Origin: an uncultured Candidatus Saccharibacteria bacterium | GTDB taxonomy: Bacteria; Patescibacteriota; Saccharimonadia; Saccharimonadales; Saccharimonadaceae | Length of the DNA: 64,000 nt | Direction: 5' to 3' | Assembly: GCA_964570845.1 (NCBI GenBank) | Contig: CAZMZB010000001.1 | Span: 143,473 to 207,472 of the forward strand | In this document: piece after piece, positions 2,327 through 11,331 of the stretch | Numbering within the stretch: the stretch's first letter is position 1 | Layout: every line of letters starts with the position of its first letter | The notes under the pieces: model-generated | Seen by the model: only the letters and a program-made list of their open reading frames with translations | Told to the model about the DNA's origin: nothing | Database searches by the model: none | Translations under genes and position numbers: made by a program

Positions 2327-2401
2327 TGGTGACCCCACGGAGAATCGAACTCCGGTTGCCAGGATGAAAACCTGGTGTCCTAACCACTAGACGATGGGGC
2401 C
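2327..2401 (-). tRNA. tRNA-Glu (anticodon UUC)
   Basis: 75 nt cloverleaf folded by hand: acceptor GGCCCCA/UGGGGUC, anticodon stem CCAGG/CCUGG with loop UUUUCAU, T arm CGGAG-UUCGAUU-CUCCG, encoded CCA. Confidence 0.95.
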
Positions 2402-2424
2402 ATAAAATTGATAGAACGATAAGT

Positions 2425-2452
2425 ATTGTAACAGATTAGAAACAGATTGTAA
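2425..2452 (-). promoter_or_regulatory. Sigma70-like promoter for tRNA-Glu
   Basis: Minus strand TTACAA - 16 nt - TACAAT, with the -10 element ending about 23 nt upstream of the mature tRNA 5' end. Confidence 0.4.
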
Positions 2453-3015
2453 AAAGAAAAATAGCCCGAGGGCTACCCCGCCCGCCTTCATGGCGAAACG
2501 GAGTAACCATCGGGAAAGTTTTGGTTAGACAGCCGCAGGGATCGGCCGTCGGGAAGGAGAGTTTACGTAGGTCTCCTTGCGGTGACCTCTCGTATTACTC
2601 TGCATGCTCCTTGTCGGTCGTCTCATCTCATTCCATTGCAAAATGAGACTCCTGCGGAACATCCACCTTCCGCTCCTCGACTTTTGGAGTTTTCTTGCCT
2701 CACACAACCCTTCCAGGGTAGCGAGGACTATCCTGCGCTGCTCGCGCTTCGATACCCCAGGCATGGGGTACATTTTTACGATCCTCCTAGCAAGAAAGTT
2801 GAGATCACGGCGCAAGTCGAAAACATCGACCCACCGACCGTCCCTCTTCGTTTTTTTAGCGCGATGGGCGGCATCCTGAAAGGCTGCGAACACACAGTCA
2901 TCAGGATTTACCAGAACAGTTGAATGCAACGTGCATCCTCTCATTGTAATGTTCAAGTAACCGATCAATCACTCAATCGGCTTTTCCGGTATCCAACCAG
3001 AAAACTTAGACTTGT
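2451..3015 (-). ncRNA. Candidate large (about 0.56 kb) structured noncoding RNA, class unassigned
   Basis: Bounded by a near-consensus promoter (3021-3049) and a strong intrinsic terminator (UAGCC-CUCG-GGCUA plus U-run, 2475-2451). About 54% GC by hand count versus lower flanks. Three mutually overlapping stop-free ORFs on both strands. Many stable local helices including a GCAA tetraloop hairpin. No SD for the 147-aa ORF. See finding. Confidence 0.5.
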
Positions 3016-3020
3016 CTATT

Positions 3021-3049
3021 GTTATACTCCTATAAAATTGAAAAGTCAA
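3021..3049 (-). promoter_or_regulatory. Sigma70-like promoter of the candidate ncRNA
   Basis: Minus strand TTGACT - 17 nt - TATAAC, immediately after the stop of the upstream glycosylase gene. Confidence 0.5.
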
Positions 3050-3072
3050 TAAAAATATGATGTAAAATTTCC

Positions 3073-3873
3073 CTACTCTACCAGAGAAATACGGTCTTTA
3101 CAGACAAAAATCATATTTTCTTTTTGCAGGCTTTTTAGTGCCGGCTTAAATCTATTGTCTGCTACGACCATCTGGCGCAGTTCATTTTCACTCAGACTGC
3201 CGTCGATTAAAGCCTTTAAAATCTTGCCTCTCATCTCACGAAGCGAACCTTTTAACGGCGTTTGTTTTTTATAATGTCTGCTCTGGGAAAGCCTGCCACC
3301 ATATTGTTTTTTTAAAAACGTGCCATAATCCATCAATGCATAGTACCATTCGCGTGGGTTTTCTTTATCCATCGTTGCTTCTATTAATTCACTCAACTTA
3401 CCATCGCTCACTGTTTCCGCGCTATCAGCAAAAAAGTGGTGAAAATACACCGTACGAATATTCGTTTCAATGAAAACAACCGGTTGATTAAAAGAATAGG
3501 CTAAAATTGCCCCGGCAGTATTTTTACCAACTCCCGGAAGTGTGATTAGCTCTTCGAGTACTTTTGGAACTTCACCATCAAAGTCTTTTTCAACTTTCTG
3601 CACAGCTCGTAACAAAAACTTGGCTCGGCGATTATAGCCTAGTCCATTCCACAATTTTAAGACATCAGACAGTTTTGCGCTTGCTAAAGATGACATATCA
3701 GGAAACTTCTGGATAAACGCTTCAAATTTTGGCTTCACTCTTTCAACTTGCGTTTGCTGCAACATGATTTCAGACACCAAAACATAATATGGTTCCGTAT
3801 TTTCCCGCCATGGCATATCGCGTTTATTGTGCTGATAATGCTGCCAAACTGTTTCCTGAAACTCTTTCACCAC
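3073..3873 (-). CDS. HhH-GPD DNA glycosylase, MutY/Nth-like, without Fe-S cluster cysteines
   Basis: 266 aa; MutY-like VSEIMLQQTQVERV, HhH motif LPGVGKNTAGAILAYSF. There is no C-x6-C-x2-C-x5-C cluster after the glycosylase core; a short extra C-terminal domain follows. Confidence 0.8.
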   Translation of the reverse strand: MVKEFQETVWQHYQHNKRDMPWRENTEPYYVLVSEIMLQQTQVERVKPKFEAFIQKFPDMSSLASAKLSDVLKLWNGLGYNRRAKFLLRAVQKVEKDFDGEVPKVLEELITLPGVGKNTAGAILAYSFNQPVVFIETNIRTVYFHHFFADSAETVSDGKLSELIEATMDKENPREWYYALMDYGTFLKKQYGGRLSQSRHYKKQTPLKGSLREMRGKILKALIDGSLSENELRQMVVADNRFKPALKSLQKENMIFVCKDRISLVE

Positions 3874-3964: not shown

Positions 3965-4900
3965 TTATTGGATTCTCACGGGAGTCGCTTTCATTGAAAT
4001 TGGCACTTGTTTTATTCGCCATACATCATCTGGGGTGTAAGAGCAAAGATAGTAGGTACCAGCTGCTACTACAGCATTATGCGCCTCGCCAAATAAAGTT
4101 CTTTGTATATACATATAGCTACTACCCGCAGGAATACCTGTTAAGCTATCGATTTGAAAATAGACTTGTTGAGTTCCAGAGCTATTACACATCGCCAATA
4201 CTTCAGTAGACTGACTGGCAGACCCGCTAAATCCACGCCTTACTTGCTCTATACGCACAATGCCGTTAAGAATATATTCTCCTGTTCTTGGAATAACCAT
4301 GCCAGTCGTGTGATTATGCATAATACTCGGCTCCATCACTCCACCACCAGTACCTGTTACCGCTAGCGGACTCCCACCCAAAAACTCCCATTTGTAGGCT
4401 GAGGGGGAAGAAGAGTTGTAGCGCAGGTGCCAGATAGTGCGATTGGCACTATTGGCAACATAATACACCTCCATCCCATCAGTAGGACTGGAGGGCAAGG
4501 CGGTAACCATTGAGGCGGTGGAGGCAAGTTCAACAATGACGGTTCCTTTAGCCACATATTGTTTACCATTAGCCAGAGTGACGGTGCCGGTTACTACAGC
4601 CGAGGGTGCCTGGGAACCGGAGCTACTGGGAGGAGCTACCGTGAAGGTGGAGCTGTAGGTATCGTTTTGTTCTACATACTCAGTACCGGAACTAATGCTG
4701 CCAGTACAGGTGGTTTTGGGTGTTAAGTTACTGGTCCAGTAGATAGTGCCGTTCTTTTTTAGGCAGGCGGTGGCATAGGCAATGCCTGCTTCAACGACCT
4801 GATCGGCAACCCGGTTGTAGGTTTGTCCCTGCAGCGACTGGAAGATAGAGGTACTTGCCACCAGTGTGGAGGTGCCTATGATCATGAGGATGGTGCCCAC
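3965..4900 (-). CDS. PilX-N-like pilus-associated surface protein (5' end interrupted at a G8 tract)
   Basis: The N-terminal hydrophobic helix plus STSIFQSLQGQTYNRVADQVVEAGIAYA resembles the PilX N-terminal domain. The rest is a Ser/Thr/Gly-rich beta-type domain. The track start is a GTG inside the helix. The frame is open upstream to 5050 without a start codon. ATGs at 5034 and 5013 lie in another frame (see finding). Confidence 0.6.
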   Translation of the reverse strand: MGTILMIIGTSTLVASTSIFQSLQGQTYNRVADQVVEAGIAYATACLKKNGTIYWTSNLTPKTTCTGSISSGTEYVEQNDTYSSTFTVAPPSSSGSQAPSAVVTGTVTLANGKQYVAKGTVIVELASTASMVTALPSSPTDGMEVYYVANSANRTIWHLRYNSSSPSAYKWEFLGGSPLAVTGTGGGVMEPSIMHNHTTGMVIPRTGEYILNGIVRIEQVRRGFSGSASQSTEVLAMCNSSGTQQVYFQIDSLTGIPAGSSYMYIQRTLFGEAHNAVVAAGTYYLCSYTPDDVWRIKQVPISMKATPVRIQ

Positions 4901-5065: not shown

Positions 5066-6382
5066 TTACGGGGTTAAGCGATTGATATCACGCGGAAAGA
5101 GCGTGGCTTCTTTGACGTTTTTGAGACCAATGGTTTTTTCAACCAAGCGGTCGATGCCCATACCGCAACCACCATGTTGCGGAAGACCATATTTAAATGC
5201 CTGAAGATAATATTTATAGCCAGGATGGCTAACATCAAGCCCTGCCTCTTCCATTTGTGCAACGAGCTTTTCATAATGATGCTCGCGAAGCGGCACAGTG
5301 GCAATTTCGAGACCACGAAAGAGAAGGTCGCCCCACAGCACATGATTTTCATCGCTAGGATCAAGCTGATGATAAAACTTCTTGAGACTGGCTGGAAACT
5401 TCGTGGCATAAACCAAATCGCTGCCTAGTTGCTTTCGGGCGTATTCGCAAATCCAGCGCTCTTCATCAGGAATCAAATCCTCTTCCTGAGTCGTATCAGT
5501 TTTATTAGCCTTCGAATACATCTCATGAATTTCTGCCACTGTGAAAGTGGGTACTTCATCGGTTAGTTTTAATTCAGGAGCGTTCAAGCTTTTCAGATCA
5601 CTCTCGTGCTCATCATAAACACGCCGCAACACATCTTTTGTCATATTAGCCACCATATCAAGCACTTCTTGATGGCTCTGCACAAAGCCCATCTCGAGAT
5701 CAAGCATCATAATTTCGCTCATATGCCGTGTTGTGGCGCTTGGTTCTGCCCGAAAAGTTGAACCGATTTCAAACACTCGCTCATACACCCCCACTAACAT
5801 TTGCTTGTAAAGCTGTGGGCTTTGCGCCAAAGTTGCTTCTTTTTCAAAATATTCCAGCTTAAAAACTTCAGCTCCGCCTTCTGTTGCTTCGGCAAGGAGT
5901 TTTGGTGTTTGGATTTCAACAAACTCATTCTTGGTCAAAAACTCTCGCAGATAACGCAATATACTGGCACGAATTTTAAAGACTTTTTGCTCTTGAATAT
6001 TCCTTAGATTTAAGACACGATATTCAAACAATGTATCAAGGTGCTCTGGCTTATGCGAAATTGGCTTGTCAATCTCAATTGGCGGCTCGTCAAGCACCGG
6101 CACTTCAACCGTCAGTTTCACGTCGTGCAGCTCAGCACCGCCAGGCGCACGTTCGTCACTCATAACTTTTCCTTCGACCGTTAAAACCGTACCAATATGT
6201 AGTGCCCGCAGTTTCTCAACCTCAGTCTTATCTTCAACCAATGCCTGAACAATACCGCTTCGATCACGCACCACAATAAAGTTCAGTCCGCCAAGCAGAC
6301 GCTTTTTATGAAGCCAACCTTTAATAATAATCTTCTCTTCGGCTTTTTTTGCGATATCACGAACGAGCGTGCGTTCACTCAT
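5066..6382 (-). CDS. aspS: Aspartyl-tRNA synthetase, archaeal/eukaryal-type (class IIb)
   Basis: OB-fold start GWLHKKRLLGGLNFIVVRDRSGIVQ, motif 2 FRAEPSATTRH, motif 3 GGCGMGIDRLV. The track ORF extends to 6433. ATG at 6382 (MSERTL) follows AGGAG and gives only an 8-nt overlap with the upstream gene. Confidence 0.85.
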   Translation of the reverse strand: MSERTLVRDIAKKAEEKIIIKGWLHKKRLLGGLNFIVVRDRSGIVQALVEDKTEVEKLRALHIGTVLTVEGKVMSDERAPGGAELHDVKLTVEVPVLDEPPIEIDKPISHKPEHLDTLFEYRVLNLRNIQEQKVFKIRASILRYLREFLTKNEFVEIQTPKLLAEATEGGAEVFKLEYFEKEATLAQSPQLYKQMLVGVYERVFEIGSTFRAEPSATTRHMSEIMMLDLEMGFVQSHQEVLDMVANMTKDVLRRVYDEHESDLKSLNAPELKLTDEVPTFTVAEIHEMYSKANKTDTTQEEDLIPDEERWICEYARKQLGSDLVYATKFPASLKKFYHQLDPSDENHVLWGDLLFRGLEIATVPLREHHYEKLVAQMEEAGLDVSHPGYKYYLQAFKYGLPQHGGCGMGIDRLVEKTIGLKNVKEATLFPRDINRLTP

Positions 6383-7334
6383 GGTGCTCTTTTTCTCCTG
6401 ACTCATCTGATTTAGCTTTGACGGTGCGGCCAAGCAATATCTTTACGATATCTTGCATGCTCACAATCCCTACTGTCTCCTTATGTTCATTAACTACTAT
6501 AAACAGATGTGAACGGTGGTGCAAGAAATCTGCCAATACATCTTCAACTGGTTGCTGTTCACTAATTTTATGAATATGCGCGTTCATCACCGTCTTGACC
6601 ATGTGTGATTGCTTGTCCTTTAAGGAAACAATATCCTTAATATCAAGAATACCGACAATATTATCCGGACTGCCGTCAAACACCGGGAAATAGTTATGAC
6701 CAGTTCTATGCAGCTGGTCTAGTACAAGCGGTCCAAGCATTTCATTTTTACCGATGGAATTAATTTTCTCTTTTGAGGTCATAATATCCTTAGCGGTAAG
6801 TGAGGAGAAATGAGTAGTGGCTATCAAAGCTTCTTTTTCTTTTATATCTAAAAAGTGAGCGTGGCTAATAGCATGCTGCAACTCCTCTTTTGAGTGCAAA
6901 CTAGTAATGAATTCATGCTTTTTCGCGCCAAAGACTCGAAAAATCTTTGCATGTTTTTCAATGAATGTCAGGATAGTCGACTCATATTTCTCATATAGCC
7001 TCTGAGCCGGTTTGTGAATAAAGTTTGAAGAAGCAAGCAAGTCATACGTTAGTGCTACGAGGAGCGATATGATGATCCCAAAAAACCACCCCAAAGCTGT
7101 CATTGATAAAACCGTAATCAATACGAGCAGTGCTGATATTTTCACATTTTGCAGTGCCTCAAGCATATCAAGCAACTTTTCCCTGCGCAGTTTTTGAATT
7201 GCCTCGCCATTGCCGACTCCAGCTCGTCGTTTGAGTTCATAATGGCTGAGATGACTGCGAACAGGAAGAATCGCTGTCACAAACAACAGGGCAACAAAAA
7301 AGAGCACATCAACTGTTATTAAAAATATATTCAT
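6375..7334 (-). CDS. CBS-pair membrane protein (CNNM/CorC-like)
   Basis: 319 aa; N-terminal TM helices, then two CBS-like repeats (AKDIMTSKEKINSIG... and VEDVLADFLHHRSHLFIVVNEHKETVGIVSMQDIV). Confidence 0.75.
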   Translation of the reverse strand: MNIFLITVDVLFFVALLFVTAILPVRSHLSHYELKRRAGVGNGEAIQKLRREKLLDMLEALQNVKISALLVLITVLSMTALGWFFGIIISLLVALTYDLLASSNFIHKPAQRLYEKYESTILTFIEKHAKIFRVFGAKKHEFITSLHSKEELQHAISHAHFLDIKEKEALIATTHFSSLTAKDIMTSKEKINSIGKNEMLGPLVLDQLHRTGHNYFPVFDGSPDNIVGILDIKDIVSLKDKQSHMVKTVMNAHIHKISEQQPVEDVLADFLHHRSHLFIVVNEHKETVGIVSMQDIVKILLGRTVKAKSDESGEKEHHE

Positions 7335-9784: not shown

Positions 9785-11089
9785 TTAAAGAGAGCGCTTC
9801 AATTTTTCAGCCGCTTTTCCTTCAGCAATAACATTTCCTTGCTTATCTTCAATAATAGTTTTTGATCCACCAACGCCAAGCTCTTCCCTAATGACATAGC
9901 TGTGTTTCTTGCGCCTATCATCACTTTTAAGATAATCCCAAATAGTCTTCCTAACTTCTGAAGCATTATCGAAAAGAAAGTCGGGAGCATTATGATCAAT
10001 AATTTCCCCATTTCGAAGTGCTTCTTTGTTGCACGACGGACACTTAATACCACCACTCGTAAGGATTGCATCAACCGTTGCACTACATAGCGGGCAAGTC
10101 ACACATTTCAATAAATTTCCTTGCATTTGCCCCTGTTTCTCAAGTTGAGCCGCAGTACTCAGAACAGGGCAGTCAGGTTCGTATTCTCGTCCTTCTTCAT
10201 GTGCTCTTTCGCCAGATTCGGCAAGTGACAGTACACTTCTGCCACGCAAACGATCATCTAGTGCAGCAACATAATTATGCCGCGCCTCCTCCAAAAGCTG
10301 CTGCCTCTCTTCGTCGGAAAGAGCAAGTGCCATGATATCTATCACAGCTTCCATATGTGCTGCTGTTATATCAGGGTGTTGATCGACGAATTCTAAAGAG
10401 TTTTTTTCTGAAGTAAAATGCCCGCCTGCATACCACTCTCCACCAAATTGTTCAGCCAGTGAGGCGTCATATGTTTCACGAATAATCGTTGGTAGTTTTC
10501 TTTTCGTTACTTCATCAGCAGATATAACATAGCGTTGAGCCAGTACCTCCTCAGAAGAAAGCCCGTCTGGCAAAACACCGCCAAATCTATTCACCACGGC
10601 CTGCAACGCTTGATAGTTTGACTGTTCAAGGGAAAGAGTAGTTGTTTTAACGCCACTTCGTGTTCGTTCATGAATTCTTATTTTTGCCAAACCACGCTCT
10701 CTGTTATAACCCTCAAGTTGTGTCACTCCTTGCTCCACGGCATCAGGAATAGTAGAGGTGACGATAAAAATATTTCCATCGAGCTCCCCTCTTGCAAGGC
10801 GTTCAGCAAAATATGCTTCCTCCAACTCAAGCTCACGCCTTTTCACTTCGAAATCAATATCTTGGCGAAAACGAGCCACTTCTCTTGCGGCCTCTAAACC
10901 TTGTTCACAAACATCGACTAGCCTATCCCCGAATTCCGAGTAAACATGTCCATGTTCATCGACATAATAATCAAATGAACTCTCCACAGGTAACATCAGC
11001 CGCTCGGACGCATCTGTTTTTTCATCAAGCTCTATGCTGGCATAATGTGCCTCGATAAATTGTGTTTTTTCTTTTGCTAGTGTTACCAC
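9785..11089 (-). CDS. Hypothetical protein with internal zinc ribbon
   Basis: 434 aa, GTG start 9 nt after GAGGGG. Four-Cys ribbon CVTCPLCSATVDAILTSGGIKCPSC near residue 330. No family recognised. Confidence 0.7.
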   Translation of the reverse strand: MVTLAKEKTQFIEAHYASIELDEKTDASERLMLPVESSFDYYVDEHGHVYSEFGDRLVDVCEQGLEAAREVARFRQDIDFEVKRRELELEEAYFAERLARGELDGNIFIVTSTIPDAVEQGVTQLEGYNRERGLAKIRIHERTRSGVKTTTLSLEQSNYQALQAVVNRFGGVLPDGLSSEEVLAQRYVISADEVTKRKLPTIIRETYDASLAEQFGGEWYAGGHFTSEKNSLEFVDQHPDITAAHMEAVIDIMALALSDEERQQLLEEARHNYVAALDDRLRGRSVLSLAESGERAHEEGREYEPDCPVLSTAAQLEKQGQMQGNLLKCVTCPLCSATVDAILTSGGIKCPSCNKEALRNGEIIDHNAPDFLFDNASEVRKTIWDYLKSDDRRKKHSYVIREELGVGGSKTIIEDKQGNVIAEGKAAEKLKRSL

Positions 11090-11331
11090 TAAAAAATCCC
11101 CTCATCTTTTCGCTCCAAAGACAAGAGGATTTATAATCTCCACCTTATATAAAACTTCCTGCTCGGGAACGTTACTTCTTAAAAACGTATCGGGCTTTCA
11201 CCGTTGCGGCACAGCTCACGAATTGCACGTGATTCCGCTTTTAAAAAGTTTTAATTGTTAATTTGTCTTCATTATACACGCTATGTTTGCTGCTGTGTGG
11301 TGTGTTATTAACACCATATATGGCACAGTAC

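Follow-up and report, generated by a model that had tools for sequence, protein, structure and literature searches.

A subclade-restricted Saccharibacteria gene for a predicted winged-helix protein, with an mRNA that appears to be selected for folding

The subject of this report is a unit of about 560 nucleotides (nt) on the minus strand, at roughly 3070-2451, of a 64,000-nt stretch of an uncultured Candidatus Saccharibacteria genome (assembly GCA_964570845.1, contig CAZMZB010000001.1, positions 143,473 to 207,472; hereafter the window), where it sits between a gene for an HhH-GPD glycosylase and a tRNA-Glu gene and has a GC content of 53% in a genome of 41%. The unit is an orphan regulator-like protein-coding gene and not a new class of large RNA. 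The account of it that we consider probable as a whole is that of a monocistronic gene, limited to one small Saccharibacteria subclade, which encodes a very basic winged-helix protein of 134 amino acids (aa), likely to bind nucleic acid, and whose mRNA has been selected for extensive base pairing. An earlier note on the same DNA had taken the segment for a large non-coding RNA, either ROOL/GOLLD-like or specific to the lineage, a proposal that fails because covariation is found only at the ends of the transcript and the open reading frame (ORF) between them is conserved.

Evidence for a protein-coding gene

Syntenic homologues of the unit occur in four further Saccharibacteria lineages (L001, L083, L003/L094 and L095), and the order HhH-GPD, unit, tRNA-Glu, SpoU is common to all relatives. 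The ORF, at 2525-2929 on the minus strand (134 codons plus the stop), is retained in the five sequences down to 37% aa identity with a length of 130-135 codons, and its insertions and deletions are all multiples of three (3, 6, 9 or 12 nt in alignments A1 and A5). Differences at the first, second and third codon positions number 29/31/61, 36/37/68 and 11/8/28 in the pairs compared, Nei-Gojobori estimates of the ratio of nonsynonymous to synonymous rates (dN/dS) are 0.15-0.28, dS being saturated or nearly so, and in four lineages the sense frame holds no stop, as against one to eight stops in each of the other five frames. With this third-position bias, low dN/dS, in-frame indels and open sense frame, the ORF is almost certainly protein-coding, and the aligned homologues show its product to be under purifying selection. 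The earlier note had regarded the ORF as spurious, and had itself named codon-periodic substitution in homologues as the sign that would count against a non-coding RNA; this is the substitution pattern that the homologues display, and the claim falls with it.

The three long overlapping ORFs on which that view was built (2525-2968 on the minus strand, 2582-2923 and 2604-2879 on the plus strand) all exist. The two on the plus strand were rejected as genes, being unconserved and carrying one to six stops in every lineage examined, the window included; since the non-sense frames carry stops in the four lineages examined, these ORFs are best viewed as compositional by-products. Translation of the minus-strand ORF would begin at TTG (2929-2927), the sole in-frame start common to all homologues, which is preceded in all five sequences by AGGA or GGAG at a distance of 6-8 nt. 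In the window an AGGA lies 6 nt upstream (2939-2936), although the minus-strand ORF had been described as devoid of a Shine-Dalgarno (SD) sequence, and the same initiation region (2922-2939) contains a predicted 7-bp hairpin, GGAUGCA-CGU-UGCAUUC, at 2938-2922. The arginine content, put at about 20% in the earlier note, counts out at 16% (22 of 134 residues from the TTG, or 23 of 147 in the 147-aa ORF).

The homologues fall into two ORF types with about 40% aa identity to each other, set between nearly identical flanks. The L095 locus (1356-1987) is a mosaic of the two: its ORF is 93% identical in nucleotides to that of L003 and 63% to that of L001, and its HhH-GPD gene, the P2 hairpin of its leader (described below) and its terminator are nearer those of L001 (86%, 94% and 89%). 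Two origins could account for the mosaic: divergent ORF alleles may have recombined across the conserved flanks, or the contig, assembled from short reads (Logan), may be a chimera in which the nearly identical flanks served as the joint.

The distribution of the gene is narrow. In a search of 5.8 billion protein clusters, complemented by an index-free HMMER pass over 1.84 billion representatives, three relatives were found besides the protein of the window itself, and the family comprises only four 90%-identity clusters among the 5.8 billion; a fifth variant of the ORF was recovered by cluster look-up. A metagenome scan with the leader hairpin pattern returned one locus, which did not differ from the L003 type in the stretch that was read, and an HhH-GPD-anchored scan of 80 loci found the unit only in L003, while a scan of genome contigs with peptide patterns from the 134-aa protein gave no match. 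A word-index profile search added no genuine cluster to the four; one further candidate relative, P0005, a 1080-aa eukaryote-like tandem-repeat protein, was rejected as a spurious summed match.

Promoter and terminator

Its sequence and conservation mark the unit as independently transcribed, between a promoter and a terminator of its own. The promoter (3021-3070, minus strand) is made up of an A/T-rich upstream block at 3070-3050, a -35 element TTGACT at 3049-3044, a 17-nt spacer and a -10 element TATAAC at 3026-3021, and the entire block, A/T-rich stretch included, hardly varies among the related lineages, where the synonymous sites of the flanking genes are saturated. The hexamers and spacing that the earlier note had placed at 3049-3021 are therefore present within a conserved block; a promoter scan misses the site because it demands T at the last -10 position. 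The -35 and spacer region (3032-3052) also forms a 21-nt direct repeat of 76% identity (ATAAAATTGA...) with the region upstream of tRNA-Glu (2402-2422), which is probably due to chance, as the similarity, judged by eye, is not kept in L001.

The intrinsic terminator (2451-2514, minus strand), supported by covariation and by a terminator scan, consists of a 21-bp interrupted hairpin at 2514-2465 and then CUA and a U-run at 2461-2451. The hairpin is paired in 97.6% of the alignment cells, includes three pairs with double (compensatory) changes and is followed by UUUUUCUUUUU; its structure conservation index is 0.94 and its local folding z-score is -4.8. The hairpin and U-run from which a terminator at 2475-2451 had earlier been proposed are present, but the short UAGCC/GGCUA stem involved (2475-2462) and the 21-bp hairpin are mutually exclusive, and covariation favours the longer structure.

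Evidence for selection on mRNA folding

The GC content is 0.51-0.53 across 2500-3000 and 0.37-0.44 in the flanks, in agreement with the GC-rich unit (about 54%) of the earlier note, whose impression of an unusually structured RNA is likewise borne out. The minus-strand RNA of 2451-3020 (570 nt) has a minimum free energy of -229 kcal/mol (z = -8.1), compared with z = -4.0 for the plus strand. The window ORF (405 nt) has a folding z-score of -5.2, against a range of -3.0 to +3.3 for 405-nt sense segments of 36 other genes of the window, and values of -2.7 and -4.1 were obtained for homologues. From the strand and gene controls we conclude that the structural signal is real and belongs to the minus strand. 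In a sliding 100-nt scan z is negative along the whole transcript, with its lowest values in the leader and the 3' third; most of the flanking sequence scores near zero. A z of -3.2 marks the final 100 nt of the HhH-GPD gene, stop region included (3150-3051, minus strand), and among the other flanking 100-nt windows only 2350-2251, over the 3' end of the tRNA, has such a score; this folded gene end may act as a barrier to read-through or as a 3' stabiliser of the upstream gene.

When synonymous codons were permuted within the ORF, so that the protein and the codon counts stayed the same, the native ORF of each of four lineages proved more stable than its permuted versions (z = -5.7 in the window, and -3.4, -5.2 and -4.6 in the others); in each lineage 0 of 100 permutations were as stable as the native sequence, which was the more stable by 20-30 kcal/mol. 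The same procedure applied to 18 control genes gave z = -0.28 +/- 1.12, with a minimum of -2.05. The GC content of third codon positions (GC3) is 0.60 in the window ORF and 0.51-0.65 across the four lineages tested, against 0.351 +/- 0.041 (maximum 0.47) for the 37 long ORFs of the window, and the codon usage of the ORF (z = -4.4) deviates more than that of any other among 212 windows of equal size. Since synonymous sites are saturated, so high a GC3 cannot be un-ameliorated foreign composition; we infer that it stands far above the genome norm because synonymous codon choice has been selected for base pairing. Furthermore, the synonymous differences that have become fixed between close relatives cost the fold less stability than random ones would (z = -2.4, -0.7, -1.9 and -3.2). 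Taken with the permutation tests, these observations make it very probable that the structure of the mRNA is under selection.

The object of that selection would be the extent of pairing. The structure conservation index of the interior, that is of the ORF, is 0.27, no higher than that of the HhH-GPD gene used as a control at each divergence level, and a conserved interior RNA architecture was rejected for this reason. The helices listed in the earlier note all belong to the minimum-free-energy fold, but two of them, the hairpins at 2770-2753 and 2591-2557, occupy segments that are rich in indels and variable in protein sequence; the homologues lack both, which are accordingly specific to the lineage. 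Base-pairedness that is conserved without a fixed architecture argues against an ornate RNA of the ROOL or GOLLD type, and for a generic role of folding in stability, RNase resistance or translation rate.

Conserved RNA elements at the ends of the transcript

Covariation is seen in three places only, namely the 5' leader, a hairpin at the end of the ORF and the terminator, and the alignments show the structures of these three elements to be conserved. The 66-nt leader (2948-3013, minus strand) folds into a three-way junction of P1 (3008-3004/2958-2954), P2 (3003-2996/2990-2983) and P3 (2982-2973/2968-2959). Its 23 pairs are formed in 97.8% of the cells, as opposed to 28-51% when the partner columns are slid by one to three positions, and its structure conservation index is 0.80. 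All of the double changes of the leader, in four sequences, are compensatory and fall in four pairs of P2, a hairpin that differs between L003 and L095 at about 10 of 25 positions and pairs perfectly in both, the ORFs of these two being 93% identical. P3 is invariant and includes G-U pairs, so that this stem would function only as RNA of the minus strand. A covariance model of the leader (R1) finds a single copy in the 64-kb window (91.8 bits), one copy in each cognate locus scanned, and the motif in no other Saccharibacteria locus retrieved. By these comparisons the leader is a new small RNA motif, so far from only five sequences.

The ORF-end hairpin (2528-2550, minus strand) has an 8-bp stem, GACGGCCG/CGGCUGUC, and a 7-nt loop, AUCCCUG (AUCCCUA in L083), that covers the Ile-Pro codons just before the stop. 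It is present in all four lineages, with 90.6% of the cells paired and double changes in four of the stem pairs; within the stem a synonymous CCG-to-CCA change is matched by an Ala-to-Val/Met replacement on the opposite side, and the Ile and second Pro codons of the loop show no synonymous variation. Kissing of this loop with the L2 loop of the leader (GGAU/GGGGU) or with the SD sequence is not claimed, as the complementarity seen by eye is only 3-5 nt. The hairpin over the SD sequence and start codon (2938-2922) is predicted in three of four lineages and offers no informative variation. In nucleotide identity between lineages, the promoter plus leader (0.78-0.94) and the 3' untranslated region (UTR; 0.77-0.93) equal or surpass neighbouring housekeeping coding sequence (0.74-0.86) and greatly surpass the ORF compared between its two types (0.62-0.65).

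All 4227 models of Rfam 15 were run with cmscan on the whole window at gathering thresholds, and on 2380-3120 also at E values up to 10. Nothing in 2380-3120 passed the gathering thresholds, and the permissive scan of that segment gave three chance-level matches, the best at 21.1 bits against a gathering score of 50; the full check thus upholds the earlier statement that the unit belongs to no known RNA family. No covariance model for RNase P, tmRNA, SRP, 6S, ROOL, GOLLD, OLE, HEARO, raiA or riboswitches matched within the unit. ROOL, GOLLD, OLE, HEARO and raiA resemble it in a size of about 0.5 kb, in proximity to tRNA genes and in very negative folding z-scores, but the unit has no match to their models, its interior is not conserved and its ORF is under purifying selection. 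In ornate non-coding RNAs generally, architecture is conserved and covariation runs through the body, whereas here the helices shared between lineages lie at the ends only.

In its manner of working the unit would resemble small HTH (helix-turn-helix) or winged-helix regulators with structured leaders. The nearest described arrangement that we found is the tandem of Brt RNA and the HTH protein Trp in Bartonella, for which a coupled RNA and protein regulatory circuit has been proposed (PMC5387305). Brt RNA occurs in nine copies, each a separate transcript of 194-203 nt (PMC5387305); the leader of the unit, in contrast, is 66 nt long and single-copy, has no internal terminator and no sequence relation to Brt, and the unusual structure of the unit runs on through the coding region.

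The encoded protein

The product of 134 aa is hydrophilic and has a pI of 11.5, with 22 arginines, and contains the peptides IVLATLEGLCEAR and ETYVNSPSR. These properties do not fit the mRNA of a type I toxin, which encodes a small hydrophobic peptide. A predicted winged-helix core at aa 9-103 (about 2905-2621) is followed by a basic tail at aa 104-134 that is predicted to be disordered and at whose end the motif Y[VI]NSPxR..PIP is conserved. AlphaFold2, run on a four-sequence alignment, gave a mean confidence (pLDDT) of 75, most of the core having block means of 84-93, and the elements H9-24, E33-35, H43-53, H61-77, E81-83, E89-92 and H93-103, a predicted topology of H1-b1-H2-H3-b2-b3-H4 that is that of the canonical winged helix. 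Winged-helix or HTH DNA-binding domains (JetB/MukE, CRP/Clr, STIV F93, CodY, IclR and forkhead) make up most of the Foldseek hits, the best being at E = 0.11 (probability 0.80) in the PDB and E = 0.08 in BFVD, none of them significant.

By sequence, no family match for the protein was found in Pfam, NCBIfam, PHROGs, PADLOC or the PDB, and sub-threshold matches to dodecin and BolA (E 0.05-1) were set aside as noise. The Pfam family HTH_17 (PF12728) matched one homologue only, over the SGRW[MI]F wing and at E = 0.019; at 15.6 bits against a gathering cut-off of 27 this does not place the protein among HTH_17 or excisionase proteins. Because no database family is matched and a winged helix is predicted, the protein is seen as an orphan family with a generic nucleic-acid-binding fold, and on the strength of the model nucleic acid is its most likely ligand. 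Its evolution is more rapid than that of its neighbour by a factor of about two to four (dN 0.27-0.64 versus 0.12-0.17).

Known winged-helix domains, such as HTH_17 (PF12728), STIV F93 (2co5), CRP/Clr and JetB/MukE, have in common with the protein the predicted order a1-b1-a2-a3-b2-b3 with a C-terminal helix, and its G-R-W-x-F wing motif resembles the wing of HTH_17. It differs from these families in having no significant match of sequence or structure and in its long disordered Arg/Lys tail ending in Y[VI]NSPxR..PIP, a feature that to our knowledge is found in none of the HTH_17, STIV F93, CRP/Clr and JetB/MukE families.

A possible mechanism and its weak points

The elements described above suggest how the gene might work. 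Transcription would start from the conserved sigma-70-type promoter, giving an mRNA that opens with the 66-nt three-way-junction leader, is translated from a weak TTG behind AGGA, closes its ORF in the conserved hairpin and ends at the 21-bp hairpin and U-run. Heavy folding together with structured ends may make for a long-lived, RNase-resistant mRNA, and the TTG start and non-preferred codons for modest translation. The leader junction is probably the binding site of a regulator, most plausibly of the encoded winged-helix protein under autogenous control, and that protein is probably a DNA-binding regulator or a nucleoid-type protein that acts on DNA or RNA elsewhere. That the RNA folding has a stabilising or translation-tuning role seems to us an evenly balanced proposition.

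Autogenous control of this kind has precedents of a sort, in that cspA has a long conserved 5' UTR and the mRNAs of ribosomal proteins have autoregulatory leaders. Like the unit, these systems join a strong promoter and a conserved structured 5' UTR to a small basic protein for nucleic-acid binding, with autogenous control as a possibility. Here, however, the protein is predicted to be a winged helix and neither an OB (oligonucleotide-binding) nor a ribosomal protein, no Rfam leader is matched, and we know of no description, in cspA or ribosomal-protein leader systems, of structure selected across the whole coding sequence.

Several observations weigh against the account as a whole. The fold call is a prediction from an alignment of four sequences, with Foldseek E values of 0.08-0.1 that are not significant. 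The covariation statistics are weak, as there are only five sequences in two ORF types; the compensatory-change measures were reached by 2-9 of 500 shuffles, and one measure for the ORF-end hairpin by 97 of 500. The interior of the RNA does not keep its structure between lineages. Opening of the initiation region would take 8.7-12.2 kcal/mol, a value within the range of the controls (7.0 +/- 3.6), on account of which occlusion of the SD sequence is not relied upon and its sequestration as the key mechanism is weakened; with an initiation region that is not unusually occluded, the notion of throttled translation comes down to the TTG start and the atypical codons. Lastly, the leader motif occurs once per locus, so that no regulon is visible, and autoregulation through the leader is doubtful.

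Alternative explanations

Another way to view these data is as a dual-function RNA, which would encode the winged-helix protein and act in addition as a structured riboregulator or protein sponge. We regard this as unlikely, and extend the same low expectation to its fuller form, in which an abundant base-paired RNA with an activity of its own is bound by the protein that it encodes, as a protein/RNA module private to the subclade. The leader and the AUCCCUG loop would then carry the RNA activity, for example protein titration or RNA pairing, and the two divergent ORF types would reflect allele exchange or diversifying evolution. Such a role would accommodate selection for folding at synonymous sites in the four lineages tested, non-coding ends that are conserved as much as, or more than, neighbouring housekeeping coding sequence, a conserved loop free of synonymous variation, and the combination of a weak TTG start and atypical codons with a strong-looking promoter. 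RNAIII/hld, SgrS/SgrT and SR1/SR1P, in which peptides of 26-43 aa lie within an RNA of defined and conserved structure, are comparable in that a structured RNA contains an ORF. In the unit, though, a folded domain of 134 aa takes up 70% of the transcript, structural conservation is limited to the ends, and the dual-function small RNAs that we know of encode peptides of fewer than 50 aa. Moreover, the interior helices turn over between lineages, as those of a defined functional RNA would not, no target or partner could be identified, and no second copy of any of the motifs was found in the window or in related loci.

It is less likely still that, in an otherwise identical coding gene, the RNA of the leader and initiation region serves to sense rather than to stabilise, as a thermometer or as a switch that responds to a ligand or protein. 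The conserved three-way junction, the hairpin over the SD sequence and start codon, and the TTG start would suit such a device; yet the junction has no unpaired conserved nucleotides able to form a pocket, the leader contains no attenuator-type terminator and matches no riboswitch family, and the opening energy of the initiation region is like that of other genes.

The high GC content and deviant codons might instead betray foreign ancestry, the gene being a horizontally acquired remnant such as the excisionase-like gene of a tRNA-linked integrative element. A GC content of 53% against a genomic 41%, the atypical codon usage (z = -4.4), the weak match to the excisionase-type HTH_17 family and the adjacent tRNA gene could all be cited for this history, which we consider very improbable. 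The same synteny is kept in five lineages with saturated synonymous sites, and GC3 is nevertheless still 0.51-0.65; composition-preserving shuffles leave z at -3.4 to -5.7; tblastn of the protein against phage genomes and plasmids gave no homologue; and the search around the unit found no integrase, att-like repeat or tRNA fragment. The gene also lies 5' of the tRNA and not at its 3' end, in the same position among housekeeping neighbours in all five lineages, which does not resemble a tRNA-linked island.

That the unit is after all a large structured RNA, non-coding and about 560 nt long, ROOL/GOLLD-like or specific to the lineage, with an ORF that merely results from GC-rich sequence with few stops, is scarcely credible: the very negative folding z-scores, the GC-rich composition with overlapping ORFs on both strands in the window, the adjacent tRNA gene and a protein without a database family would fit it, but the ORF persists to 37% aa identity in five sequences with in-frame indels, third-position bias and a dN/dS of 0.15-0.28, stops interrupt each of the other five frames in all the lineages examined, the winged helix is a confident prediction, the interior structure (index 0.27) is conserved no better than that of a control gene, the hairpins at 2770-2753 and 2591-2557 are missing from homologues, and no Rfam family appears even at E values up to 10.

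Genomic neighbourhood

The favoured reading of an orphan protein-coding gene places it in a row of minus-strand genes that runs from a class II tRNA synthetase of the Asp/Asn/Lys type (5066-6433) through an ORF of 311 aa (3965-4900) and the HhH-GPD glycosylase (3073-3873) to the unit, and then to tRNA-Glu(UUC) (2401-2327) and a SpoU-type methyltransferase (1483-2271). The closest species-level genome to the HhH-GPD protein of the window is a metagenome-assembled genome of an uncultured Candidatus Saccharibacteria, at 76% aa identity, which bears out the lineage supposed in the earlier note. The tRNA-Glu(UUC) gene, recognised by ARAGORN and Rfam, is a neighbour and not part of the unit; a promoter scan assigns it the promoter TTTACA-17-TACAAT at 2453-2425 (minus strand). 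Its promoter and upstream region (2402-2465, minus strand) is almost base-for-base identical in the window, L001 and L003, in which the synonymous sites of neighbouring genes are saturated.

The 311-aa ORF has no Pfam match, a raised GC content (0.50-0.55, with 0.51 at second codon positions) and a hydrophobic N-terminal segment, and in the L083 and L003-type loci whose flank is long enough an MFS_1 transporter gene stands in its place directly upstream of HhH-GPD. It looks like a lineage-specific gene replacement. Farther off, at 11176-11247 on the minus strand, lies an AdoCbl-II (cobalamin) riboswitch aptamer (Rfam 41.6 bits against a gathering score of 36.5), directly upstream of a 434-aa ORF without a Pfam family (9785-11089, minus strand) and with an MFS transporter gene just upstream. 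A B12 riboswitch may thus govern this unannotated protein.

Implications

A segment that is GC-rich, poor in stops, full of helices and open on both strands seemed to be non-coding and is nevertheless a gene, which serves as a warning for annotation. The unit is also a natural example, of uncommon clarity, of selection that acts through synonymous sites on how an mRNA folds, seen in the four lineages tested and not in control genes of the same genome. Saccharibacteria have very few recognisable regulators, and to their repertoire this gene adds an orphan family of predicted winged-helix proteins. If it is true that the leader is the protein's own operator, gene and leader would together form a compact autoregulatory module, one that could be tested in cultivable TM7 strains.

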